Shown in pieces: positions 11,643-24,035 of a stretch of 64,000 nt of DNA (position 1 is its first letter; the number at the start of each line of letters is the position of its first letter). The translations under genes were made by a program, and so were the position numbers. The notes beneath the pieces are model-generated. The model ran no database searches. It had not been told where the DNA came from and saw only the letters and a list, made by a program, of their open reading frames with translations. Origin of the DNA: Candidatus Omnitrophota bacterium (GTDB lineage Bacteria > Omnitrophota > Gorgyraeia > Gygaellales > Profunditerraquicolaceae); NCBI GenBank assembly GCA_049517335.1, contig JBEKSD010000002.1:78523-142522 (forward strand), written 5' to 3'.

Positions 11643-14381
11643 ATGGTAAAGAAATACGTTTACAGTTTTGGCGGAGGTAAAGCAGACGGAAATGAAAGCA
11701 TGAAAAATCTTCTGGGTGGCAAAGGCGCCAACCTGGCTGAAATGGCAGGGCATAAAGATTTGAAACTTCCTGTTCCTCCGGGATTTACGCTTACTACCGA
11801 GGTTTGCACATATTATTACCAGCACCACCGGACTTATCCTTCTACCTTAAAAACAGAAGTAAATAAGGCGTTAGCGCATGTTGAGAAATTAATGCTCAGG
11901 AAATTCGGCGACGTGGAAAGCCCGTTATTGGTTTCCGTGCGCTCGGGCGCAAGAAAGTCCATGCCCGGAATGATGGAAACGGTTTTAAACGTCGGCCTGA
12001 CTGAAAGGACTATCCCCGGACTGATCAAGCAAAGCGGAGGCAATGCGCGTTTTGTTTATGATGCCTACCGCCGACTGATTATGATGTATTCCGACGTTGT
12101 TATGGAGAAAGCGGCAGGTATCGAGCCAAAAGACGAACAGGGAATACGCAAGCAGCTAGAAAGAATTATGTTGCAGATAAAGAATGAAAAAGGCTATAAG
12201 AGCGATACCGACTTAACTGCCGAAGATTTAAAGAAGCTCTGCAACCTTTTTAAGGCGAGAATCAAAGAAGTATTAAAGAAGGAATTTCCGGATGAACCTA
12301 TGCAGCAATTATGGGGCGGTATAGGCGCCGTATTTGCTTCATGGAATGGCAAGCGCGCGATTTCCTACCGCCGCATTGAGAGGATTCCCGATGAATGGGG
12401 AACCGCGGTAAACGTGCAGACCATGGTATTCGGCAATATGGGCAATGATTCCGCAACCGGCGTTGCCTTCAGCCGTAACCCCGGCACAGGAGAAAACTAT
12501 TTCTACGGCGAATATTTACTTAACGCCCAGGGCGAAGACGTTGTTGCGGGCATCCGTACGCCAGCCCCCATAAATGAATTATCAAAATCAGAACACAATA
12601 AAGAACTGGTCACACTGGAAAAATCCATGCCTAAACTCTATAAAGAACTGGTTAACTACCGTGACCGTCTGGAAAAACATTACCGCGATATGCAAGATAT
12701 TGAATTCACCATAGAAAAAGGCCGCCTGTTTATGCTTCAGTGCCGCGTGGGAAAACGCAACGGCCCGGCAGCAGTATGCATGGCTATGGAGATGATAAAG
12801 GAAAAACTGATTAAACGGGAAGAAGCAGTTCTAAGAGTTTCCCCTGAGCAGCTTGACGAGCTGCTTCATCCGATTATTAATCCTAAAGCAGAATTAACCC
12901 ATAAGCCGCTGGCTAAAGGTTTACCTGCAGGGCCGGGAGGAGCAACAGGGCAGATTGTTTTTTCCGCAAATGATGCAGTAGAATGGACAAAGCAGGGCAA
13001 AAAAGTAATACTGGTGCGCGAAGAAACCAACCCCGAAGATGTTGAGGGTATGCGCGCAGCTGAAGCAATTCTGACTGCCCGGGGAGGAATGACTTCACAC
13101 GCCGCCTTAGTTGCCCGTGGCTGGGGAAAATGCTGCGTTGTCGGATGCTCTGCGCTACATGTTGAATTTGATAAGAAAGAAATATCTATCGGAGGTAAAA
13201 CCTTAAAAGAAGGCGACTGGATTACCTTAAACGGAAGCAAAGGGAATGTCTATGAAGACAAGCTCCCGATGATGGACGCCACAAAGGAAAATAAAGTCCT
13301 TAACGCTTTCTTAAAGATTTGCGCTGACATTAAGAAACTGGGGATTCGCACTAACGCCGACACTCCAGAAGATGCGGCTAAAGCAAGGGAATTCGGCGCA
13401 GAAGGTATCGGCTTGTTCAGGACCGAGCACATGTTTTACGGCAAAGGCTCTGATGAAGCCTTGTTCCTGCTGCGTAAGATGATTATTTCAAAGACCTTGG
13501 AAGAAAGGACAAAAGCCCTTGATGAGCTGGCTCCTTATGTCAAAAAAGACATAAAAGGAACCCTTGAAGCTATGGATGGATTCCCGGTAGTTATCCGTTT
13601 ACTGGACCCGCCCCTTCATGAATTCGTACCGCGCGATTCCGAAAAGCTTGAGCACCTTGCAAAAGAGCTTAACATCAGTATGGAAGAATTGTCCGAGCGC
13701 GCAGAAAATTTACACGAATCTAACCCGATGATGGGACACCGCGGGGTACGTTTGGGAATAACTTATCCTGAAGTAAGCAGTATGCAGGTCCGCGCGATAT
13801 TTGAAGCTACGGCAGAGTTGATTAAAGAAGGCAGGAAACCTTATCCGGAGATTATGATCCCCGTTGTCTGTGACGTAAAAGAACTGACTAACCAGCTTGA
13901 GTTATGCCGCAAGGTTTATGCCGAAGTGCTGAAAAAATATGGGTTAAAAAATATCAAGCATATGTTCGGGACGATGATTGAAATTCCGCGTGCGGCATTG
14001 CTTGCGGATAAGCTTGCGGAAGTTGCTCAGTTCTTCTCATTCGGGACTAACGACTTAACCCAAATGGGATTTGGCTTTTCGCGCGATGATATTGGGGGCT
14101 TTGTTCCGGATTATCTGAAATTGGGTATTTTACCGGAAGACCCGTTCCAAAGCATTGACCAGGAAGGGATAGGCCAGCTTATTAAAATAGGCATTGAACG
14201 CGGCCGCAAGACAAATAAAAAACTTGAAGTGGGCATTTGCGGCGAACACGGAGGAGAGCCGAAATCAGTTGAATTCTGCCATAAAGTCGGCATGAATTAT
14301 GTCAGCTGCTCGCCGTTCCGTGTTCCGATTGCGAAATTAGCTGCAGCTCAGGCGGTATTAAAAGAAAAAAGAAATAACTAA
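11643..14381 (+). CDS. ppdK: Pyruvate, phosphate dikinase
   Basis: 912 aa; PEP-utilising enzyme motifs (GGMTSHAALVARGWGKCCVVG catalytic His region), C-terminal TIM-barrel motifs. Confidence 0.9.
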   Translation: MVKKYVYSFGGGKADGNESMKNLLGGKGANLAEMAGHKDLKLPVPPGFTLTTEVCTYYYQHHRTYPSTLKTEVNKALAHVEKLMLRKFGDVESPLLVSVRSGARKSMPGMMETVLNVGLTERTIPGLIKQSGGNARFVYDAYRRLIMMYSDVVMEKAAGIEPKDEQGIRKQLERIMLQIKNEKGYKSDTDLTAEDLKKLCNLFKARIKEVLKKEFPDEPMQQLWGGIGAVFASWNGKRAISYRRIERIPDEWGTAVNVQTMVFGNMGNDSATGVAFSRNPGTGENYFYGEYLLNAQGEDVVAGIRTPAPINELSKSEHNKELVTLEKSMPKLYKELVNYRDRLEKHYRDMQDIEFTIEKGRLFMLQCRVGKRNGPAAVCMAMEMIKEKLIKREEAVLRVSPEQLDELLHPIINPKAELTHKPLAKGLPAGPGGATGQIVFSANDAVEWTKQGKKVILVREETNPEDVEGMRAAEAILTARGGMTSHAALVARGWGKCCVVGCSALHVEFDKKEISIGGKTLKEGDWITLNGSKGNVYEDKLPMMDATKENKVLNAFLKICADIKKLGIRTNADTPEDAAKAREFGAEGIGLFRTEHMFYGKGSDEALFLLRKMIISKTLEERTKALDELAPYVKKDIKGTLEAMDGFPVVIRLLDPPLHEFVPRDSEKLEHLAKELNISMEELSERAENLHESNPMMGHRGVRLGITYPEVSSMQVRAIFEATAELIKEGRKPYPEIMIPVVCDVKELTNQLELCRKVYAEVLKKYGLKNIKHMFGTMIEIPRAALLADKLAEVAQFFSFGTNDLTQMGFGFSRDDIGGFVPDYLKLGILPEDPFQSIDQEGIGQLIKIGIERGRKTNKKLEVGICGEHGGEPKSVEFCHKVGMNYVSCSPFRVPIAKLAAAQAVLKEKRNN

Positions 14382-14383
14382 AC

Positions 14384-14459
14384 TAGGGACGGTTCTCAAG
14401 GCGAAGCTAAACTGTCCCCTAAAGGGGACAGTTTAAGATTAAGTTGAGAACCGTCCCTA
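14384..14459 (+). terminator. Nested double hairpin after ppdK: a 16-bp outer stem encloses a 12-bp inner hairpin
   Basis: TAGGGACGGTTCTCAA...TTGAGAACCGTCCCTA outer arms; AAACTGTCCCC/GGGGACAGTTT inner arms; lies between the ppdK stop and the sigma gene start. Confidence 0.5.
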
Positions 14460-14468
14460 AAACAACCT

Positions 14469-15284
14469 ATGGAATCCTTAAAATTATACCTCAAGGAAGT
14501 CAGAAACATACCTTTATTGACTCCACAGGAAGAAATTAATCTGACCCGTAGAGTGAAGAAAGGTGATGAGCAGGCGCGTAAAGGCATGATCCGCGCAAAC
14601 CTCAGACTGGTCATAAATATTGCTAAGCGCTATATGTATTTGGGTATCCCGCTCATAGACTTAATAGAAGAGGGGAACCTCGGGCTTATCAAAGCAGTTG
14701 AAAAATTTGAACCAAAGAAAGGCTTCCGCTTTTCAACTTATGCCGCATGGTGGATTAAACAGGGGATTACCCGTTCAATTTCAGAACAGGGAAAAATGAT
14801 CCGCATACCTGTTTACATGAATGAGCTAATCTCCAAATGGCGCAAGGCCAAAGAGCGGCTTTCCCAGAAGTTAAAACGCCTGCCGAAAGATGAAGAAGTT
14901 GCCAAAAAAATCAAGCTTACAAGAGATAAAATTGAACAGATAAACTTCTGGATGAGCTCATCCACGTCCTCACTTGATACTCCCATAGGGGATGAAGAAA
15001 ACAGCCAGGTCTCTGATTTAATAGAAGATAAGACCTCCGCTTCGCCGGATGCGACCGTCGGGATTATGATGGACAAAGAAAGAGTGAACAACCTTCTTGA
15101 TATAATGAGCGGGAGGGAAAAAGAAATACTTGATATGCGCTTCGGGCTTAATGACAATAAACCGCACACACTGGCGGAAGTTGCGCAAAAGCTGGGAGTT
15201 TCCCGCGAAAGGGTACGCCAGATAGAAGAAGCGGCTTTAAAGAAACTCAAAAAATTCGTAACCGATCAGGAGGGCGAGTTATGA
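14469..15284 (+). CDS. RNA polymerase sigma factor, sigma-70 family (short group 1/2-like, regions 1.2 to 4)
   Basis: 271 aa; region 1.2 LYLKEVRNIPLLTPQEE; region 2 RANLRLVINIAKRY; region 4 HTH LAEVAQKLGVSRERVRQIE. Confidence 0.75.
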   Translation: MESLKLYLKEVRNIPLLTPQEEINLTRRVKKGDEQARKGMIRANLRLVINIAKRYMYLGIPLIDLIEEGNLGLIKAVEKFEPKKGFRFSTYAAWWIKQGITRSISEQGKMIRIPVYMNELISKWRKAKERLSQKLKRLPKDEEVAKKIKLTRDKIEQINFWMSSSTSSLDTPIGDEENSQVSDLIEDKTSASPDATVGIMMDKERVNNLLDIMSGREKEILDMRFGLNDNKPHTLAEVAQKLGVSRERVRQIEEAALKKLKKFVTDQEGEL

Positions 15285-15805
15285 GCCCTAAAATCAACTT
15301 AAAAGGAATAATAAGGAATATCCCGGATTTCCCCAAGCCTGGAATTTTATTTTATGACATCACAACCCTGCTCAACGATAGAAAGGCACTTAAATACGCA
15401 GTTAATGAATTAGTAAAAAAATTTAAAAGTAAAAGAATAGATAAAGTGGTTGCCGTTGAAGCAAGGGGTTTTATTTTCGGGGGAGCGATTGCGCACCAAC
15501 TGAACGCGGGATTTGTCCCAGTCAGAAAAAAAGGAAAACTCCCGTGGAAAACCAATTCGGCAACTTATGCATTAGAATACGGGACAGATACCCTTTATAT
15601 GCATAATGACGCCATAAAGCCTAAAGACAATATTCTAATCGTTGATGACCTGTTGGCAACCGGCGGCACGATTAAAGCAGTAACGGATTTAGTTAACCAG
15701 CTAAAAGGTAATATAAAAGGGATAATTTTCCTCATTGAGCTGCTGGATTTAAAAGGTAAAGAAAAGCTTAAAGGTTATCCGGTATTTTCTTTGATAAAAT
15801 ATTAA
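15281..15805 (+). CDS. apt: Adenine phosphoribosyltransferase
   Basis: 174 aa; PRPP-binding motif [10 protein letters not shown]; N-terminal [12 protein letters not shown]. Confidence 0.85.
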
Positions 15806-15863
15806 GCAAAATTCTGCAAATCGGAGGTGGAGGTACCCAGCCTATGTTGGCAATAATAATTAC

Positions 15864-16121
15864 CGGACGCCCCTTATTTCGCCTATTTACGCTGATTTAT
15901 CCGGATTACCCCCTATGCTCATCCAGGTTGGTGAATGGGAAATTTTGTTAAGTGGTGATTCCACCCAGCTGGCGGAGCGGGCCCGTAATGCCGGAGTTGA
16001 TGTAACGCTAGAGGTGTGGGATTGTATGTGACATGTATGGTATTACTTTACGCCCTATGTACCCGAGAGCAAGCGTGCCATTAAGAAAATTGGAGAGTTT
16101 CTACGTAGCCATATAGACTAA
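15864..16121 (+). pseudogene. 3-prime remnant of an alpha/beta-hydrolase (esterase/lipase fold-3) gene with an in-frame TGA
   Basis: Frame 3 reads [82 protein letters not shown], resembling esterase C-termini; no N-terminal portion; stops upstream in the same frame. Confidence 0.6.
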
Positions 16122-16221
16122 ACCTGATACGTAAATCAGTTTAAGATAGCCCATGCATCAAAGGCGAGAAAAAGAATTAAAATCAGGTCAGGGTAGGGAA
16201 TATTTAAAAATTATTTTATCT

Positions 16222-16295
16222 GCGCCTATAGCTCATAAGGATAGAGCAGCAGTTTCCTAAACTGCGTGCGGCAGGTTCGATTCCTGCTAGGCGCA
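16222..16295 (+). tRNA. tRNA-Arg (anticodon CCT)
   Basis: 74-nt cloverleaf folded by hand: acceptor GCGCCTA/TAGGCGC, anticodon stem GCAGT/ACTGC, loop TTCCTAA, T-loop TTCGATT. Confidence 0.85.
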
Positions 16296-16306
16296 TCTAT
16301 TTATCT

Positions 16307-16957
16307 ATGTATAACTTACACACCCATACATTATTAAGCGATGGGGTATTACTTCCTTCGGAAGTCGCGGTGCGTTATCTTGATAAGGGCTATAAGGTAA
16401 TCGCGATAACCGACCACGCTGATTACTGTAACATTAAACCCCTAATAAACGCCGTTACCGCTTTCTGCAGCCATTGGCCCAAAAATTCCGGCATAACCGT
16501 CCTACCCGGCATTGAGTTAACCCATATCCCTCCCGAACAATTTAAGCCTCTGGCTAAATACGCGCGAAAAAACGGGATTAAGGTAATTGTCGCTCACGGC
16601 GAAACTACAATGGAGCCGGTAATAACGGGAACTAACCGCGCAGCGATTATGTCCGATATTGATATCCTCGCGCACCCCGGATTAATAAACGATGGAGACA
16701 CACTGCTTGCAAAGGAGAGAAATATTTTTTTGGAACTAACCAGCCGCAGAGGGCATTCAGATACCAATAATCACGTGGCAAAACAGGCGTTAAAACACGG
16801 TGTAAAACTGATATTGAATAATGACAGTCATGAACCGCAAGATATAATCACGCCTGAAGAATTAGCCGAAATAGGGACTAATTCGGGAGTCAGTAAAGAG
16901 GGTATTGATATTATATATAGGAACATAGAAGAATTTATAAAAAGGAGGAAAGGATAG
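16307..16957 (+). CDS. PHP-domain metal-dependent phosphoesterase (histidinol-phosphatase-like)
   Basis: 216 aa; N-terminal HTHTLLSDG and internal ITDHAD PHP motifs. Confidence 0.6.
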   Translation: MYNLHTHTLLSDGVLLPSEVAVRYLDKGYKVIAITDHADYCNIKPLINAVTAFCSHWPKNSGITVLPGIELTHIPPEQFKPLAKYARKNGIKVIVAHGETTMEPVITGTNRAAIMSDIDILAHPGLINDGDTLLAKERNIFLELTSRRGHSDTNNHVAKQALKHGVKLILNNDSHEPQDIITPEELAEIGTNSGVSKEGIDIIYRNIEEFIKRRKG

Positions 16958-16958
16958 G

Positions 16959-17423
16959 ATGAAACGAAAAAATATAGTTCTCGTATTTGTGTCTTTGTGT
17001 GTCCTCGTGTTCGCCGGGTGCGCCATGATGCAGCAGGATAAATCCTTAAGCTCTAGTACCTCAACATTAGAGCCGCAGGCAATGATTAAATTTCCCGATG
17101 TCCCTGTTCCCAGCGGTTTCAAAAGCCTACCTAGCCAGTCATATTCCTTTGAAAGCTCGGGCGTGCGGGTCGGAGTCTTAAAATTCCAGGGAAAAGCTGA
17201 AATAGACCAAATCGTGAATTTTTACAAAGAACAGATGGTAATGTATAACTGGAATCTGCTGAATGTAATTGAATACGGGGACCGCCTCTTGAATTTTGAC
17301 CGCGAAAATGAAACCTGCGTCATTACCCTGATACCGAAAGGAAAAACGGTTATAATTACTGTTTCTTTGGGGCCGAAATCGCAGGCAGTTACTAAAAAAA
17401 CGAAGAAAGAACCGGTAAAATAA
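16959..17423 (+). CDS. hypothetical lipoprotein
   Basis: 154 aa; signal peptide with lipobox LVFAGC. Confidence 0.45.
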   Translation: MKRKNIVLVFVSLCVLVFAGCAMMQQDKSLSSSTSTLEPQAMIKFPDVPVPSGFKSLPSQSYSFESSGVRVGVLKFQGKAEIDQIVNFYKEQMVMYNWNLLNVIEYGDRLLNFDRENETCVITLIPKGKTVIITVSLGPKSQAVTKKTKKEPVK

Positions 17424-17449
17424 TATAAGGTGAGAGAAGCGTAAAAAAC

Positions 17450-17482
17450 TCTTGACAAACATAGAGTTATGTGATAAAAAGG
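17450..17482 (+). promoter_or_regulatory. candidate sigma-70 promoter (TTGACA, 17-nt spacer, extended -10 TGtGATAAA) heading a roughly 200-nt leader of the porin gene
   Basis: TTGACAaacatagagttatgtgaTAAAAA; the -10 is weak. Confidence 0.25.
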
Positions 17483-17674
17483 ACATAATATAATTTGGAT
17501 ATACCATTGGAGATGGCTTTAATGTTCGGCGGAAAGGAGGATGAAGCATATAAAATAAGCCGGAGGCCAGAGAAAATCCAGTGATATACTATAGAAAATA
17601 TACCTAGGATACAATTGAAGAACCTAGTTAAGTGATATAGTCAAGAATTTTATTTATCAAGGAGGATTAAGCAA

Positions 17675-19099
17675 ATGAGGAAACATTTAATATTAGTTCT
17701 GGCATTAGCGTTAGTAGCCGGCTTAACCGTTGGCGCCTACGCTGAAGTCCAGAATGTAAAGTTAAGCGGAGACCTAACAGTCTTGGGCTTATCCCGCGAC
17801 TTATGGATTACTTCTCACCCCGCTGAAAATACTCTGGCGAGCATTGCCCGTTTAAGAGTTGATGCTGACTTAACGGATAATGTCATAGCCACGGTAAGGC
17901 TGATCAATGAAAGATATTGGGGAGCAACGATGGAGACAGGAAGTACTTCTACGAGCGATATGTCAGAAAACACCAATATTGACCTTGATTTAGCCTATGT
18001 AACCTTAAAAGAGTTCCTGTATTCACCGCTGACCTTAACCGTTGGCCGTCAGGAACTGCATTTCGGAAACGATATGATTATTGGTGACGCTTATACCAAT
18101 AACCATGCTTCCAAAGACAGCGTATTCAATAATACCATTGACAAAGATTTAAGTATGCGCAAATCATTTGATGCTATCCGCGCAACCTTAAATTATGACC
18201 CCTTGGTTATTGATGTTGTAGGCGCGCAAATTAGAAAAAACTATACAACTTATACGAATATAGCGGGTTATACAACTAATGCCTTAACTAAAGATGACCA
18301 GGAAACCCTCATTGGTATGAACGCTAATTACGCTGTTAGTAAAACAACAGACGTAGAAGGTTATTTCTGGAGTAGAAGAATAGGTAAGGATTCTATTACT
18401 GCCGGCAACAAACAAGACACGACCAATGTCGCTGGTGCGCGCATCGTTACCAAACCTATTACAAACTTGACTTACCAATTAGAAAGCGCATTTGAGTTTG
18501 GTAGAAATACGGTTAATACCAATACTTACACTGACCTGATAACCGCCGCTCCTTCTAAGGACTTGCAGCGCAGGGCTTGGGCACTTGAAACATCAGCAAC
18601 TTATGACTTTAAAGACTACAAGAAGATTGGCCAGTATAAGCCGACAGTAACCGCGCTTTATGCTTATTTTAGCGGTGACAGAGGTTCCGGAAGCGGTAGC
18701 AAAACCAACGGCGCTTGGGATCCGATGTATGAAAACCAGAAGTTCGGCGACATCGCCAATGCAGCATTCAACATGAGCGACGGACACACAGCAGGCGGTA
18801 TCGTAACAATGAAGCCTGTTGATGATGTCATGTTAAAAGGCGAATATTATGCTTTTTGGTTGGATAAGAGATATGCCGATGGCCAGCAAGTTGCCGTAGT
18901 AGCAACCGACGAAGTTGCAACGATGACCCATAAGAAATTCGTAGGACAGGAACTTGACCTTTCAGCAACCTATGACTACACTGAAGATGTGCAGTTCGGC
19001 ATCCTCGGTGGTATGTTCTTCACCGGCTCAGCTCTCGCAAAAGATAACAACCGTAATGTGGCAAGTGAAGTTATTGGTTCAATGAAGGTAACATTCTAA
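17675..19099 (+). CDS. outer-membrane beta-barrel protein (porin-like)
   Basis: 474 aa; cleavable signal peptide (AYA-EV); alternating amphipathic strands; C-terminal aromatic residue (..MKVTF). Confidence 0.55.
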   Translation: MRKHLILVLALALVAGLTVGAYAEVQNVKLSGDLTVLGLSRDLWITSHPAENTLASIARLRVDADLTDNVIATVRLINERYWGATMETGSTSTSDMSENTNIDLDLAYVTLKEFLYSPLTLTVGRQELHFGNDMIIGDAYTNNHASKDSVFNNTIDKDLSMRKSFDAIRATLNYDPLVIDVVGAQIRKNYTTYTNIAGYTTNALTKDDQETLIGMNANYAVSKTTDVEGYFWSRRIGKDSITAGNKQDTTNVAGARIVTKPITNLTYQLESAFEFGRNTVNTNTYTDLITAAPSKDLQRRAWALETSATYDFKDYKKIGQYKPTVTALYAYFSGDRGSGSGSKTNGAWDPMYENQKFGDIANAAFNMSDGHTAGGIVTMKPVDDVMLKGEYYAFWLDKRYADGQQVAVVATDEVATMTHKKFVGQELDLSATYDYTEDVQFGILGGMFFTGSALAKDNNRNVASEVIGSMKVTF

Positions 19100-19118
19100 T
19101 AAAAGTTATGTAACATAA

Positions 19119-19157
19119 AAAAGCCCTTGGGGGCGTAAGTCTCCGAGGGCTTTTTTA
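19119..19157 (+). terminator. Rho-independent terminator
   Basis: AAGCCCTTGGGGGcgtaagtCTCCGAGGGCTTTTTTATT hairpin followed by a T-run. Confidence 0.6.
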
Positions 19158-19168
19158 TTACCCATTAT

Positions 19169-20734
19169 ATGCTATATCTTGCTTTCATCTTCCACATGCA
19201 CCAGCCATACTATAAGGATCTCCTCACCCAAGAGGCAGAGCTTCCGTGGGTGCGGCTGCACGGGGTCAAGGATTACCTTGATATGGTGCAAATCTTGGGG
19301 CAATTCCCGAAAATTAAACAGAACTTTAACCTTGTCCCGTCACTACTGGAACAAATTGAAGGCTACGCAAACGACACTTTAAAAGATAAATTCCTTCAAT
19401 TATCCTCTAAGCCCACAAATGAGCTCAGTTCTTCCGATCAACAATTCATACTTGATAATTTCTTTTCTATAAATATAGAGAAAGTCATCGCAACGCACCC
19501 GCGGTATTATGCTCTCTATTTTAAGCGCCTTAATAAAGAACAATTTACTGAACAGAACTTTTTAGACCTGCAGGTTTGGTTTAATTTAGCCTGGATTGAC
19601 CCCTCATTTAGAAATGAGATAGCTGAATTAAAGAAACTTATACGCAAGGCCCGTTTTTTTAGCGAAGAAGACAAGCAGGTTGTTTTAAGCAAACAGGCTG
19701 AAATCCTACAAAATATAATCCCTGTGTATAAAAAATTTATGCAGTCAAAACAGGTTGAATTCACGGTAACGCCTTATTACCACCCCATTCTGCCGCTTCT
19801 CTATAATACAAACATAGCAAAGGAAGCTAACAGCAAAACCATCCTGCCAAAAGTTAAATTTTCTTATCCGCAGGACGCAGAAACCCAGATAAATTTAGCG
19901 GTTGATTACTTCAAAGCAAAATTCGGCTCAGCACCAGTTGGTATGTGGCCATCTGAACAGGCGATAAGCGAACACATATTGCCTTACATAATTAAATCCG
20001 GAATAAAATGGATTGTCTTGGATGAAGCGATATTATTTAAGTCCCTAAGAAGAAAAAAGAGGGATACTAACCTGCTTTACCAGCCGCATTTTATAAAGAG
20101 AGAGGAAGGTGAGCTTTCAATAGTATTCCGCGACAGGAATTTATCAGATTTAATCGGATTTGTATACCATAAGTGGACAGCGGAAAACGCAGTTTCAGAT
20201 TTTATCAGGCACCTTGAGGAGATTGCCTCAAGTTTTAAAGACAGGGATATTTTGGTAACTATTGCTATGGACGGGGAAAACGCGTGGGAATATTATTCAA
20301 ATGACGGGCATGATTTCCTTCAGCTGCTTTATCAGAGGCTTTCGGAATCAAAGATGATTCAAACAACAACGGTAAGCGAATATTTGAATCTTAAGCCTAC
20401 TGCATTAAAAATTGACAGGCTTGCCGCCGGCTCATGGATTTTTGGGGAATTCGGAAAATGGATAGGCAATCCGAAAAAGGCGAAAGCGTGGGAATACCTT
20501 GCTAAAGCCAGGCAAGAGCTAGAAGAAATCAGAACAGGAATTAATTCCAGCTCCGCCAATATAAACTTCGAACTTGCATGGAAACAAATGTATATTTTAG
20601 AGGGGAGCGACTGGTTCTGGTGGTTTGGCGAGGATCCCGATGGCAGTTTTGACCGCCTTTTCCGCAGGCATTTAACAAACTTCTATAATATAATAGGTAA
20701 GGAAGCCCCAGAATATACAACTCGCCCCTTATAA
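19169..20734 (+). CDS. Glycoside hydrolase family 57 protein (alpha-glucan branching/amylase-type)
   Basis: 521 aa; N-terminal FHMHQPYY GH57 signature; internal GEF(G)KWIG and WFWWFGED-like motifs. Confidence 0.75.
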   Translation: MLYLAFIFHMHQPYYKDLLTQEAELPWVRLHGVKDYLDMVQILGQFPKIKQNFNLVPSLLEQIEGYANDTLKDKFLQLSSKPTNELSSSDQQFILDNFFSINIEKVIATHPRYYALYFKRLNKEQFTEQNFLDLQVWFNLAWIDPSFRNEIAELKKLIRKARFFSEEDKQVVLSKQAEILQNIIPVYKKFMQSKQVEFTVTPYYHPILPLLYNTNIAKEANSKTILPKVKFSYPQDAETQINLAVDYFKAKFGSAPVGMWPSEQAISEHILPYIIKSGIKWIVLDEAILFKSLRRKKRDTNLLYQPHFIKREEGELSIVFRDRNLSDLIGFVYHKWTAENAVSDFIRHLEEIASSFKDRDILVTIAMDGENAWEYYSNDGHDFLQLLYQRLSESKMIQTTTVSEYLNLKPTALKIDRLAAGSWIFGEFGKWIGNPKKAKAWEYLAKARQELEEIRTGINSSSANINFELAWKQMYILEGSDWFWWFGEDPDGSFDRLFRRHLTNFYNIIGKEAPEYTTRPL

Positions 20735-20781
20735 CAGTAAACTATTGACAGACAATGAGTTTTATGCTATAAAAAGCCGAT

Positions 20782-21345
20782 ATGGATAAGAAGGATATTT
20801 ACGAGCATCTGGCTAAAATATATCTTGATGCTTCGTCCACAAAAAAGAAGAAAAATAAAGTTTACTCCAAAATATTCAAAAATCTTTTCTTAATCAGCCT
20901 TGTGTGTGTTTTTGGATTATCCACCGTTTTGCTTTCAAATTTACGCAGGCCTAAGATAAATAATTCTGAAGTTGCCCTCATCTTGGCTCCTGAAGCCTTA
21001 AAAATCAACTTTAATTTTGACCCCGCTAAAAAAGAAACTCTTACCCTTGATTTAAACCGACTTAATTTAAACAATTACAAAAGAATCGCCTTTTCGGTAA
21101 AGAAACTGGATATTTCCAACACAATCGCTTTAAGGGTTGAATTTATAAGCGCGTATAAAGAAAGATCGGAAGTTTACCTGAAAAATATCCCTAGCAAATG
21201 GCAGGATTATACGTTTAATCTTTCTGATTTTAAGAATATAACTGATTGGTCGGAAACAAAAAATTTATCTTTTACGGTTGAAGAATGGAATACGAAAGAG
21301 AATAAAGGAATAGTTTATATAGATAACGTTAGAGTATTAAAATAG
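20782..21345 (+). CDS. hypothetical single-pass membrane protein with a CBM/CIA30-like beta-sandwich domain
   Basis: 187 aa; basic N-terminus, TM helix, C-terminal pattern ending IVYIDNVRVLK typical of carbohydrate-binding modules. Confidence 0.4.
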   Translation: MDKKDIYEHLAKIYLDASSTKKKKNKVYSKIFKNLFLISLVCVFGLSTVLLSNLRRPKINNSEVALILAPEALKINFNFDPAKKETLTLDLNRLNLNNYKRIAFSVKKLDISNTIALRVEFISAYKERSEVYLKNIPSKWQDYTFNLSDFKNITDWSETKNLSFTVEEWNTKENKGIVYIDNVRVLK

Positions 21346-21358
21346 AGAGGAGTGTTAG

Positions 21359-22495
21359 ATGCGTATAATCTGCGTCACCAATCAAAAGGGCGGGTGCGGT
21401 AAAACCACGACAGCGATTAATCTGGCTGCGTCTTTATCCTTAAATGACAGGAAAGTATTGCTAATTGACCTTGACCCGCAGGCGCACGCTACTTTAGGCC
21501 TGAATATAAAAGCAGACTTAAGCATCTATAACGTCTTATCCAAAATTACCAGTAAGAAAGCTCAGCTGGAAGAAATCATTAAAAACGTAAACCCTAATTT
21601 TGACATAGCGCCTTCTGGCATGATTTTGAGCACCTTAGAACAGGAGTTGGCAGGAGAAATCGGAAGGGAATCGTGCCTAAACGATACCATTAACAATTTT
21701 AAGGGCTCTTACGATTACCTGATAATTGATTCGCCCCCCAATCTGGGGATTTTGACGGTTAACGCCATACGCGCCTCAAGCGAGGTAATCATCCCGGTTG
21801 AAGCAAGCCGTTTTTCCCTGGAAGGAGTGTCCCAGCTTTTAAGTATTATTGAATTGATTAAAGACCGCCTGAACCATAAGGTCAGGCAGCGGGTTTTAGT
21901 CGCTAATTTTGATTCGCGCCTAAGGCATTCGTTTGAAATGCTGAATAAGATAAAAGCTGATTTTAAGGATATATTGTTCAGCAATATTGTGCACGTAAAC
22001 GTAAAACTGAAAGAAGCGCAAAATTCGGGGACGCATATTTTCAATTTTGACAAGTATTGCCGGGGCGCCAAAGATTATTTCAGCCTGAGCCGGGAAATTA
22101 TCACCGCGGAAACCGAAGTTCCTGAAAAATTCCCCACGGAGCTTAAGGATATTGTAAAAAGATTCACCGAGAAAAAAATGGCTAAGGTGGAAAAACGCCT
22201 TAACGAGATATTAAAGGAGGAACTGCCTAAGCTTAATGAAGTGGTGTTTTCAGTATCCGCACCGGCCGCAAAAGAGGTATTCCTTGTTGGTGAATTCAAT
22301 AATTGGAAGGCGGATGAATCCGGGAAGATGAATAATGTTGACGGGACCTGGATAAAAAGCCTCATGCTTCATCCGGGGAAATACCGTTACCGCTTTATCA
22401 TTGACGGCTCCTGGACAGAGGATGAAAAGAACCCGCTTAAAGAAAGCAACCCTTTCGGTACGCTTGACTCATTTGTTGAGGTAGAAAAAGCATGA
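21359..22495 (+). CDS. ParA/MinD-family ATPase fused to a C-terminal AMPK-beta/CBM48 glycogen-binding domain
   Basis: 378 aa; deviant Walker A NQKGGCGKTTTAINLA, LIDLDPQA, IIDSPP; C-terminal 90 aa VFLVGEFNNWKADESGKM...GKYRYRFIIDGSWTEDEKNP align with the AMPK beta GBD/CBM48. Confidence 0.75.
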   Translation: MRIICVTNQKGGCGKTTTAINLAASLSLNDRKVLLIDLDPQAHATLGLNIKADLSIYNVLSKITSKKAQLEEIIKNVNPNFDIAPSGMILSTLEQELAGEIGRESCLNDTINNFKGSYDYLIIDSPPNLGILTVNAIRASSEVIIPVEASRFSLEGVSQLLSIIELIKDRLNHKVRQRVLVANFDSRLRHSFEMLNKIKADFKDILFSNIVHVNVKLKEAQNSGTHIFNFDKYCRGAKDYFSLSREIITAETEVPEKFPTELKDIVKRFTEKKMAKVEKRLNEILKEELPKLNEVVFSVSAPAAKEVFLVGEFNNWKADESGKMNNVDGTWIKSLMLHPGKYRYRFIIDGSWTEDEKNPLKESNPFGTLDSFVEVEKA

Positions 22496-22818
22496 ACGCT
22501 GGAAGAGAAGAAAAAGAGATACAGGAGGGAAAGTTTTTTGCCATAATTTCGTATTTAAGCTTCCTGTGTATAATTAGCCTTGTCTTAAAAAAAGACAACA
22601 AATTTTCCCTTTATCATGCCAAGCAGGGCCTTGTGCTCTTTGTTTTTGAAGTCGGCTCTTTCATATTAACCATTATCCCTATTTTGGGAGGCGTAGTGAG
22701 GGTACTCAGCCTGATAATTTTTATCCTTGCTTCCCTTTGGTGTATCTTGCAGGTTTTAATGGGCAATTACAACCGTCTGCCCGTAATCTCAGAGATAGCG
22801 GATAATATTACAATTTAA
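22492..22818 (+). CDS. small membrane protein (DUF4870-like)
   Basis: 108 aa; two TM helices and YHAKQGL motif; 4-nt overlap with the parA-like gene. Confidence 0.5.
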   Translation: MNAGREEKEIQEGKFFAIISYLSFLCIISLVLKKDNKFSLYHAKQGLVLFVFEVGSFILTIIPILGGVVRVLSLIIFILASLWCILQVLMGNYNRLPVISEIADNITI

Positions 22819-22829
22819 GGAGGTGGGAT

Positions 22830-23201
22830 ATGCCTTCAAAAAAGAAAACAATAGGAAAAAAAACGGTAAAGAAAAAGGCAGTAAAGAGGAAACCGGCTGG
22901 GAAAAAAACAGGTAAGAAAACGGTTAGGAAAGTGCCTGTTGTAAAAAAACCGAAAAAAGAACCCATCATAGGTAAAGTAACGCATTATTTCCCGCACGTA
23001 CGCGCGGCTGTAATCAAATTAAAGGCGCCCTTGGCAGTAGGAGATACCGTAAAAATTAAAGGCCACACAACGGATTTTAACCAGAGAGTCTCATCCTTAC
23101 AGATAGACCGCACGCCAATAACCGAAGCAAAAAAAGGACAGGAGATCGGCCTTCTTGTGGATTCACGGGTAAGGCAACATGATGTGGTAATCAAAATTTA
23201 A
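22830..23201 (+). CDS. Lys-rich N-terminal tail plus EF-Tu-domain-2-like beta-barrel protein
   Basis: 123 aa; the first roughly 45 aa are K-rich GKKTV(K/R)K repeats; C-terminus VGDTVKIKG...EIGLLVD resembles a translation-factor beta-barrel domain. Confidence 0.45.
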   Translation: MPSKKKTIGKKTVKKKAVKRKPAGKKTGKKTVRKVPVVKKPKKEPIIGKVTHYFPHVRAAVIKLKAPLAVGDTVKIKGHTTDFNQRVSSLQIDRTPITEAKKGQEIGLLVDSRVRQHDVVIKI

Positions 23202-23222
23202 ACAACAGGAGGGGAGTCAGCT

Positions 23223-23405
23223 ATGAGGCTTTTGGCAATTGAAAAGAAAGCGAAGGATTTAGGTATCACTGATACCTGGAAATACTCCAAGAGTGACTTA
23301 ATTAAGCTTATCCAGAAGAAAGAAGGCAATCAGGAGTGTTTTGCCACAAAATCGCGTTCAAAATGCAACCAGTTTATTTGCTGCTGGAGGGCTGACTGCA
23401 CATGA
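23223..23405 (+). CDS. small protein with Rho_N/SAP-like N-terminus and C-terminal Cys cluster
   Basis: 60 aa; LLAIEKKAKDLGITDTWKYSKSDLIKLI then C-x7-C-x4-CC-x4-C. Confidence 0.35.
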   Translation: MRLLAIEKKAKDLGITDTWKYSKSDLIKLIQKKEGNQECFATKSRSKCNQFICCWRADCT

Positions 23406-23587
23406 AATATCGCTGCCAGATCTGTGACAGGGATATTGACGATTATGTCAGCATTGCCCATATAAAGGCCGAAGAATATCTTATTGATCTTATTCAAAAA
23501 GACCATCCGGAATGGCACGAAAGCAAGAAAACCTGCCATAAATGTATCGAATATTACCGAAAATTAGTTAAAGAAAACGAAATTTAG
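23402..23587 (+). CDS. small zinc-ribbon protein
   Basis: 61 aa; CxxC ... CxxC; ATGA overlap with the preceding small ORF. Confidence 0.4.
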   Translation: MKYRCQICDRDIDDYVSIAHIKAEEYLIDLIQKDHPEWHESKKTCHKCIEYYRKLVKENEI

Positions 23588-23592
23588 ACAAT

Positions 23593-23628
23593 AAACCGGG
23601 GTCGGAATTAATTCCGACCCCGGTTTTT
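23593..23628. terminator. Perfect 28-bp palindrome flanked by A3/T5 (bidirectional terminator-like); founding copy of a palindromic element family
   Basis: AAACCGGGGTCGGAATTAATTCCGACCCCGGTTTTT immediately after a stop codon. Confidence 0.65.
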
Positions 23629-23696
23629 AACCTTATTTCTGAGTATATACTCATATTAACCCCAGCGTTAAAAGTAAGTAAGTTCGAGTAAAGTAA

Positions 23697-24035
23697 ATGC
23701 AGTTACAAGGAAGGCCCAAAAAATATAGGATTGTGCGCACAGACCCCAAAATTAGCCAATTTAGCCCAAGGGGCCGTCCAGGAAGGCCTAATGAAGCGGA
23801 TCTCACTATGGATGAGTACGAAGCCATACGGCTTTCAGATTATATGGGATTATCCCAGAAAGAAGCCAGCCAATCAATGCACATATCCCAGCAAACTTTC
23901 AGCAGAATCCTGAAAAAGGCCCGGAAAACAATAGCAAAAGGGCTGATTGACGGAGCAACTATAAAGATTCAGGGCGGCCAGTACGTAGTTACATCCCACA
24001 AAGATTTCCAACCAAATTCCTACAAAAAACTCTAA
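23697..24035 (+). CDS. DUF134/UPF0251 family putative DNA-binding protein
   Basis: 112 aa; N-terminal GRPKKYR...RGRPGRP and an HTH-like segment. Confidence 0.6.
   Translation: MQLQGRPKKYRIVRTDPKISQFSPRGRPGRPNEADLTMDEYEAIRLSDYMGLSQKEASQSMHISQQTFSRILKKARKTIAKGLIDGATIKIQGGQYVVTSHKDFQPNSYKKL

Follow-up and report, generated by a model that had tools for sequence, protein, structure and literature searches.

Is a small, lysine-tailed protein whose gene stands two places downstream of a ParA-type gene the partner of that ATPase, or does it have a function of its own? We addressed this question for a stretch of 64,000 nucleotides (nt; hereafter the window) of contig JBEKSD010000002.1 from a Candidatus Omnitrophota bacterium. 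Here a gene for a ParA/Soj-type ATPase fused to a CBM48 glycogen-binding module (ParA-CBM48) is followed by a membrane-protein gene and then by the gene of a 123-amino-acid (aa) protein with a Lys-rich N-terminal tail and a beta-barrel, which a sequence-only reading had put forward as candidate ParA partner. Our analysis, which argues from the fold, the charge, the breadth of the family and its stand-alone occurrence, favours a general binder of nucleic acids or other polyanions at a probability of about 0.5, most probably of RNA (with tRNA or rRNA as the favoured ligands) and possibly of DNA. The elements of the window needed at this point are the following.

22830..23201, forward strand: gene of the lysine-tailed barrel protein (123 aa, ATG start), a listed open reading frame for which orthologues were found.
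22817..22825, forward strand: Shine-Dalgarno site AAGGAGGTG, read from the sequence, overlapping the stop of the 108-aa membrane-protein gene ahead of it.
22830..22964, forward strand: disordered Lys/Arg-rich N-terminal tail, residues 1-45, delimited by composition and by the predicted local distance difference test (pLDDT).
22965..23198, forward strand: beta-barrel domain of the U32_C / EF-Tu domain II type, residues 46-123.
21359..22495, forward strand: ParA/Soj-type ATPase fused to a CBM48 glycogen-binding module (AAA_31, E = 1.7e-53; AMPK1_CBM, E = 1.1e-12; CBM_48, E = 1.4e-6).
22492..22818, forward strand: 108-aa membrane protein, whose start overlaps the ParA stop by 4 nt (ATGA); found in 35/67 loci with ≥2.5 kb of upstream sequence.

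The open reading frame at 22830..23201 is a real gene, and its product is a small, very basic protein composed of a tail and a barrel; protein P0001 from an NCBI Candidatus Omnitrophota metagenome-assembled genome is 100% identical to it. The computed isoelectric point (pI) of the whole protein is 10.9, and the barrel taken alone is also basic (net charge +6, pI 10.1). The 45 tail residues comprise 19 Lys, two Arg and a single acidic residue, and in the predicted structure this segment shows no secondary structure and a pLDDT of ~50. The description in the sequence-only reading (123 aa, a 45-aa K-rich tail, an EF-Tu-domain-2-like barrel, and a location two genes downstream of the co-directional ParA-CBM48 gene with one 108-aa membrane-protein gene in between) was confirmed from the open reading frames and Pfam matches. 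The motif GKKTV[KR]K, which had been described as repeated several times, is indeed present, but in just two copies and one partial copy. The GGAGG of the Shine-Dalgarno site sits 6 nt ahead of the ATG, and a site of this strength is compatible with an abundant protein. The tails of 81 orthologues are 57 aa long in the median, with a K+R fraction of 0.48, and the N-terminal consensus of these orthologues in the window's clade is M-[AP]-L-K-K-K-K. Within this clade the composition of the tail is kept whereas its sequence is not, and the median identity of the barrel (72%) is similar to that of the ParA ATPase domain (73%).

Three Pfam models scored for the 123-aa protein, all under their cutoffs: GTP_EFTU_D2 (PF03144; E = 3.5e-4, 21.4 bits, cutoff 30.3), Peptidase_U32_C (PF16325; E = 0.009, 16.6 bits, cutoff 28.2) and HC2 (PF07382; E = 0.03, 14.9 bits, cutoff 40), the last being a compositional match to residues 4-42. 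No match was obtained in NCBIfam, PHROGs or PADLOC. Structure comparison showed that the barrel shares the three-dimensional fold of Peptidase_U32_C (PDB 4he6), and the structural relatives of the barrel bind RNA or belong to RNA-modifying enzymes. The family has conserved motifs of its own, THYFP and KGHTTDF. A special ligand pocket formed by conserved barrel residues was considered, but no conclusion was drawn from them, because most of these residues (G-x-E-I-G, R-x-x-D-x-V) are fold motifs of translation-factor domain II.

A search with the barrel alone against 1.84 billion cluster representatives (clusters at 50% identity) yielded a tail-plus-barrel family of 2252 clusters at E ≤ 1e-3, 771 of which were found at E ≤ 1e-10. 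The family spans several phyla, chiefly of uncultured bacteria. Among the best 150 of the 2252 representatives, most have a C-terminal barrel behind a tail of 20-150 aa with a K+R fraction of 0.35-0.55 and almost no acidic residues, and a minority have no tail. Since tail and barrel occur together across many representatives, this architecture is ancestral and widespread rather than a local invention. About a quarter of the same 150 representatives start with an amphipathic helix ahead of the basic tail. Such starts (MVFKKLFKILKRAF, MKFLKKLGKVLF and MGFLKRLKKTL in P0197, P0173, P0158, P0203, P0209, P0254, P0256, P0403, P0443 and others) resemble membrane-targeting sequences, and the window protein lacks one.

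Two further variants of the architecture were observed. A few members (P0125, P0137, P0143, P0172, P0219 and P0270) carry a TIR-like N-terminal region and two tandem barrels but no lysine tail. The TIR assignment was confirmed for P0125 only (PADLOC TIR models, E ~1e-11), and these architectures suggest that defence-type proteins can use the barrel as a module for sensing or binding. Relatives from Margulisiibacteriota (P0190, P0206, P0182, P0187, P0210, P0223 and P0249; loci L083-L088) have a Pro/Ala-rich C-terminal extension beyond the barrel, which ends in a conserved K-(K)-F-[LFIM]-x-F at the extreme C-terminus and, judged from its sequence, looks like a short docking peptide for some partner.

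Many of these relatives are encoded away from any ParA gene. In the Margulisiibacteriota loci no ParA-like gene was found within 6-7 kb of the barrel gene, and copies with the same tail and barrel follow a YgiQ-type radical-SAM gene there, precede ProRS or have acetolactate decarboxylase next to them. When metagenomes were scanned with distant members as seeds, 80 loci were obtained, of which ~70 were non-Omnitrophota, characterised by GC contents of 0.30-0.72. None of these ~70 loci had a ParA-like gene within 6 kb, and ParA was nearby only in those of the 80 that were of Omnitrophota type and had enough upstream sequence. The neighbours in the ~70 loci were lineage-specific genes of metabolism or housekeeping (among them aconitase B, short-chain dehydrogenase, methylmalonyl-CoA mutase, M23 peptidase, Fmt and PhoH), with no neighbour gene common to different lineages. 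Among the Omnitrophota-like loci, at least three (L063, L106 and L116) likewise had no ParA-like gene in the vicinity of the barrel gene. The non-linked relatives have lysine-rich starts similar to those of the ParA-linked ones, and the family-wide presence of the lysine tail indicates that it is not an adaptation to ParA. The family is thus widely kept in contexts that have nothing to do with ParA, an outcome that the sequence-only reading had named as refuting a partnership.

Within the Omnitrophota, by contrast, the linkage to ParA-CBM48 is very strong. We scanned one genome per GTDB species and found at least 593 relatives of the barrel protein, of which the best 80 were all from Omnitrophota. 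Gene order was scored by tblastn of the window genes against the barrel-gene loci, so that linkage was counted from the side of the barrel gene. The elements involved are listed here.

11643-24035, forward strand: block of ~12 kb in the order PPDK, sigma-70, phosphoribosyltransferase, PHP/RNase P p30-like, small lipoprotein-like, porin, GH57, hyp187, ParA-CBM48, barrel gene, small proteins, DUF134.
19169..20734, forward strand: GH57 alpha-glucan enzyme at the head of the conserved cluster (Glyco_hydro_57, E = 1.2e-66).
20782..21345, forward strand: hyp187, a 187-aa membrane-anchored protein, always immediately upstream of ParA-CBM48.
~0.6-1.1 kb upstream of the barrel match in L004, L006, L016, L029, L036, L037, L041, L042, L044, L054, L064, L089, L090, L126 and L140: nitroreductase-family gene.

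Both hyp187 and ParA-CBM48 lay upstream of the barrel gene in 66 of the 67 species-representative Omnitrophota loci with ≥2.5 kb of upstream sequence, and the GH57 gene was in place in 43 of the 47 loci with ≥4.5 kb. In the 29 loci with the full 10 kb upstream, PPDK and the sigma-70 gene were present in 20 and the porin gene in 25. Four loci from a deeper, Velamenicoccus-like Omnitrophota clade showed the identical order with ParA-CBM48 upstream of the barrel gene, and retained the phosphoribosyltransferase, PHP and porin genes further upstream. Their barrel is ~57% identical, and their N-terminus is the amphipathic helix MVFKKLFKILKRAF. ParA-CBM48 was upstream in all five deeper-clade or extra loci examined. 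Thus, the co-occurrence with ParA-CBM48 expected of a partner holds inside the phylum. The ~12-kb block as a whole is syntenic in many species-level Omnitrophota genomes, an unusually deep conservation of order for functionally mixed genes. Intergenic gaps are typically 8-60 nt, which suggests an operon. Around the cluster, a promoter scan found fewer promoter-like sites than in shuffled sequence (11 versus 17.7), while a terminator scan found eight terminator-like sites (8.0 in shuffled sequence), none of them between the ParA gene and the barrel gene.

The interval between these two genes is variable. The 108-aa membrane protein is encoded there in about half of the loci, and in 15 loci from both clades a gene of ~165 aa from the nitroreductase family separates the barrel gene from ParA-CBM48 (or from the membrane protein). 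Nitroreductase occurs in L171 and L172 as well, and OsmC additionally in L089 and L172. As unrelated genes intervene elsewhere, the near-adjacency of ParA and the barrel gene in the window may be secondary and due to gene loss. The whole 12-kb block, including its unrelated genes, is an old frozen arrangement. The linkage of the barrel gene to ParA in Omnitrophota is real, but it speaks for an old gene order more than for a proven partnership.

If the protein is a general binder of nucleic acids, as we favour, its disordered lysine tail would provide non-specific electrostatic affinity for the polyanion, while the conserved basic barrel would make the specific contact, by analogy with the archaeal protein Pbp11 and with translation factors, in which this barrel fold faces RNA. 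The reading draws on the similar tail-plus-barrel layout of Pbp11, which binds tRNA only when its tail is present (PMC9540759). In Omnitrophota, the barrel gene closes an ancient block of syntenic genes on the downstream side (phosphoribosyltransferase, PHP, porin, GH57, hyp187, ParA-CBM48, an optional membrane protein, nitroreductase or OsmC, and the barrel gene). It is probably co-transcribed with this block, as the gene order leads us to infer, and its product would not specifically be the ATPase-activating partner of ParA-CBM48. Accounting for the tail as a region that binds nucleic acid or the nucleoid, which the sequence-only reading had named as an equal option, fits the evidence better than a partnership with ParA. 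Several points weigh against the nucleic-acid reading. Lysine-rich tails bind polyphosphate and acidic lipids too, and not solely nucleic acids. The matches to the barrel fold have just 11-21% identity, and both barrel-type Pfam scores are below cutoff. The neighbours in other phyla are not consistently translation or RNA genes, so that genomic context lends no positive support to a role with RNA. Lastly, guilt-by-association would score a linkage as strong as that to ParA-CBM48 (66/67 loci and the deep clade) as a functional link.

In the rival proposal, which goes back to the sequence-only reading, the barrel protein would serve ParA-CBM48 in Omnitrophota as an adaptor or as a partner that activates the ATPase. 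With its basic tail inserted at the ParA dimer it would promote ATP hydrolysis in the manner of ParB, McdB, PomX or MinE, its barrel would bind cargo or nucleoid, and both proteins together would position glycogen granules. The conserved upstream position of ParA-CBM48 in both clades, the co-directional genes with short gaps and the basic N-terminus M-[AP]-L-K-K-K-K agree with this proposal, and a partner is to be expected because the ParA part is a canonical Soj-type ATPase with a deviant Walker-A motif. Moreover, the barrel of Pbp11 contacts an ATPase, PAN (PMC9540759). On the other hand, the family, tail included, occurs in many phyla and in some Omnitrophota-like loci without a nearby ParA, and nitroreductase, OsmC and membrane-protein genes often stand in between where ParA is linked. 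Genes further upstream that have no functional relation to them are syntenic to almost the same degree, and since the block takes in PPDK, sigma-70 and phosphoribosyltransferase, its synteny with ParA is not specific. ParA-activating peptides are normally located at the extreme N-terminus, and exactly this part differs between the two ParA-linked clades (MPLKKK versus the amphipathic MVFKKLFKILKRAF). ParA-CBM48 also has its own cargo-binding module already. In a mirror-tree analysis of 49 loci with GH57 distances controlled as a proxy for phylogeny, a rough test given the short barrel, the partial correlation of the barrel was 0.16 with the ParA ATPase domain and 0.14 with CBM48, as compared to 0.50 between hyp187 and the ParA ATPase domain and 0.40 between ParA and its own CBM48. 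The most conserved part of hyp187 among 70 orthologues is the cytoplasmic N-terminal stretch of ~20 residues (MDKKDIYEHLAKIYLDASS followed by KKKK), which is kept in the deep clade as MKKE[IV]S[DE]HLA[KR]xF, whereas its membrane helix and C-terminal beta-rich domain are far less conserved. Because of this conserved basic peptide, its constant adjacency to ParA and its higher partial correlation, hyp187 is the better candidate and the most plausible partner. The interpretation given in the sequence-only reading is thus supported in part: the linkage holds throughout the phylum, but its specificity is made doubtful by the breadth of the family, the intervening genes and the weak co-evolution. 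As a linkage of this extent is too strong to dismiss, we retain the ParA-partner proposal, although we consider it unlikely. It seems rather more unlikely that the barrel protein was recruited as a third component of an as yet undescribed glycogen-granule positioning system, in which ParA-CBM48 would hold the granule via CBM48, and hyp187 and/or the barrel protein would control the ATPase cycle or provide a tether to the nucleoid by the basic tail.

Two other accounts start from the charge of the tail. A histone-H1-like nucleoid protein that coats DNA, and serves ParA systems indirectly via the nucleoid matrix, would be in line with the tail composition, which resembles that of H1-like bacterial proteins and underlies the weak HC2 match (E = 0.03), with the strongly basic character of the whole protein and its strong ribosome-binding site, and with the putative small nucleic-acid binders encoded downstream (Rho_N-like, zinc-ribbon-like and DUF134). 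We regard this account as improbable, because the HC2 score of 14.9 bits versus 40 reflects composition only, the structural relatives of the barrel are linked to RNA and not to DNA, and DNA was not shifted by Pbp11 (PMC9540759). Least probable of the accounts considered is a polyanion binder at a membrane or storage granule, whose tail would bind acidic phospholipids or polyphosphate and which would act there as a scaffold. In its favour, an amphipathic helix (MVFKKLFKILKRAF, MKFLKKLGKVLF) stands at the start of about a quarter of the representatives, the deep clade among them, two membrane proteins and glycogen-related genes are encoded in the Omnitrophota operon, and AlgP, a lysine-rich histone-like protein, is associated with polyphosphate granules. 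However, no such helix is present at the N-terminus of the window protein or of its close relatives, a role with lipids or polyphosphate is not known for the barrel fold, whose relatives are RNA-linked, and the neighbourhood showed no polyphosphate genes.

The neighbouring genes have features of their own. The closest solved relative of ParA-CBM48 is 8ray, a 'ParA family protein' (E = 5e-50), with Soj as the next best. The fusion and its adjoining GH57 gene form an arrangement that is conserved across Omnitrophota, and full-text literature searches returned no description of a ParA-CBM48 fusion or of glycogen positioning. The 108-aa membrane protein, an optional insert in the cluster, carries the motif FFAxISYxxFLCIxxLxLKKxNKFxxYHAKQGLVLF. 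The barrel gene is followed by two small genes.

23223..23587, forward strand, beginning 21 nt past the barrel-gene stop: gene for a 60-aa Rho_N-like protein with a Cys-rich C-terminus, and gene for a 61-aa CxxC...CxxC zinc-ribbon-like protein.

They were found in 36/63 and 32/63 loci with ≥1.5 kb of downstream sequence, respectively. The 61-aa protein has a median identity of 79% over 38 loci, which is above that of the ParA ATPase domain. Another family of 103-118 aa, with the motif HLLxxGDxxGDCxxCR...CPxC and no Pfam match, is encoded directly downstream of the barrel gene at 7434-7745 in L089, 7654-7965 in L090 and 10251-10607 in L063. This Zn-ribbon family follows the barrel gene in the deep clade and also in L063, which lacks ParA, and in those clades it may accompany the barrel gene more faithfully than ParA does. 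The downstream Zn-ribbon proteins were considered as the true partners, but this was rejected because the 103-118 aa family, present in L063, L089 and L090, is absent from the window's clade.

If the nucleic-acid reading is correct, its value is descriptive: it defines a family of more than 2000 clusters (at 50% identity) that has no Pfam or NCBIfam model of its own and whose members are currently mislabelled 'putative protease' or 'elongation factor-like', it offers a concrete target for RNA- or DNA-binding work, and it shifts attention to the ParA-CBM48/hyp187 pair as the more promising object. Should the barrel protein be the ParA partner after all, glycogen would join the cargoes of ParA/MinD positioning systems as a new one, and the protein would represent an adaptor of a new type. 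If it was recruited as a third component, a family that binds nucleic acid elsewhere would couple a storage polymer to the chromosome.

A comparison with known systems places the protein among stand-alone barrels. Like the ParB N-terminal peptide, McdB, PomX and MinE, it has a small, basic N-terminal region and is encoded co-directionally just downstream of a ParA-type gene within one phylum. Unlike these partners of ParA/MinD, it shows no linkage to ParA outside Omnitrophota, no N-terminal motif common to the two ParA-linked clades and weak co-evolution, and Pfam, NCBIfam and structure comparison revealed no sequence or fold similarity to ParB, McdB, PomX or MinE. With the H1-like bacterial proteins Hc1 and Hc2 it has in common a Lys-rich low-complexity segment with almost no acidic residues, but these proteins lack a barrel, and the resemblance is compositional only. 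The fold of the barrel is common to the C-terminal domain of U32 'peptidases' (PF16325; 4he6); in contrast to that domain, the barrel stands free behind a poly-lysine tail without the U32 catalytic domain. It is likewise shared with domain II of translational GTPases (EF-Tu, IF2/eIF5B and SelB; PF03144), whereas the 123-aa protein has no GTPase domain. Pbp11 (PF0907) of the Thermococcales is also a stand-alone EF-Tu-domain-II-like barrel with a flexible N-terminal tail (PDB 7anu, 4pgo; PMC9540759). It is archaeal, ~15-19% identical and has a tail of ~20 residues versus the 40-150 lysine-rich residues found here, the likeness being one at the level of architecture. Omnitrophota are not known to possess a PAN-type proteasome partner. 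A PDB profile search at E ≤ 10 returned neither 7anu nor 4pgo, and the Pbp11 sequence was not compared directly. The 123-aa protein is a bacterial, long-tailed version of a stand-alone translation-factor-type barrel and stands outside every named family.
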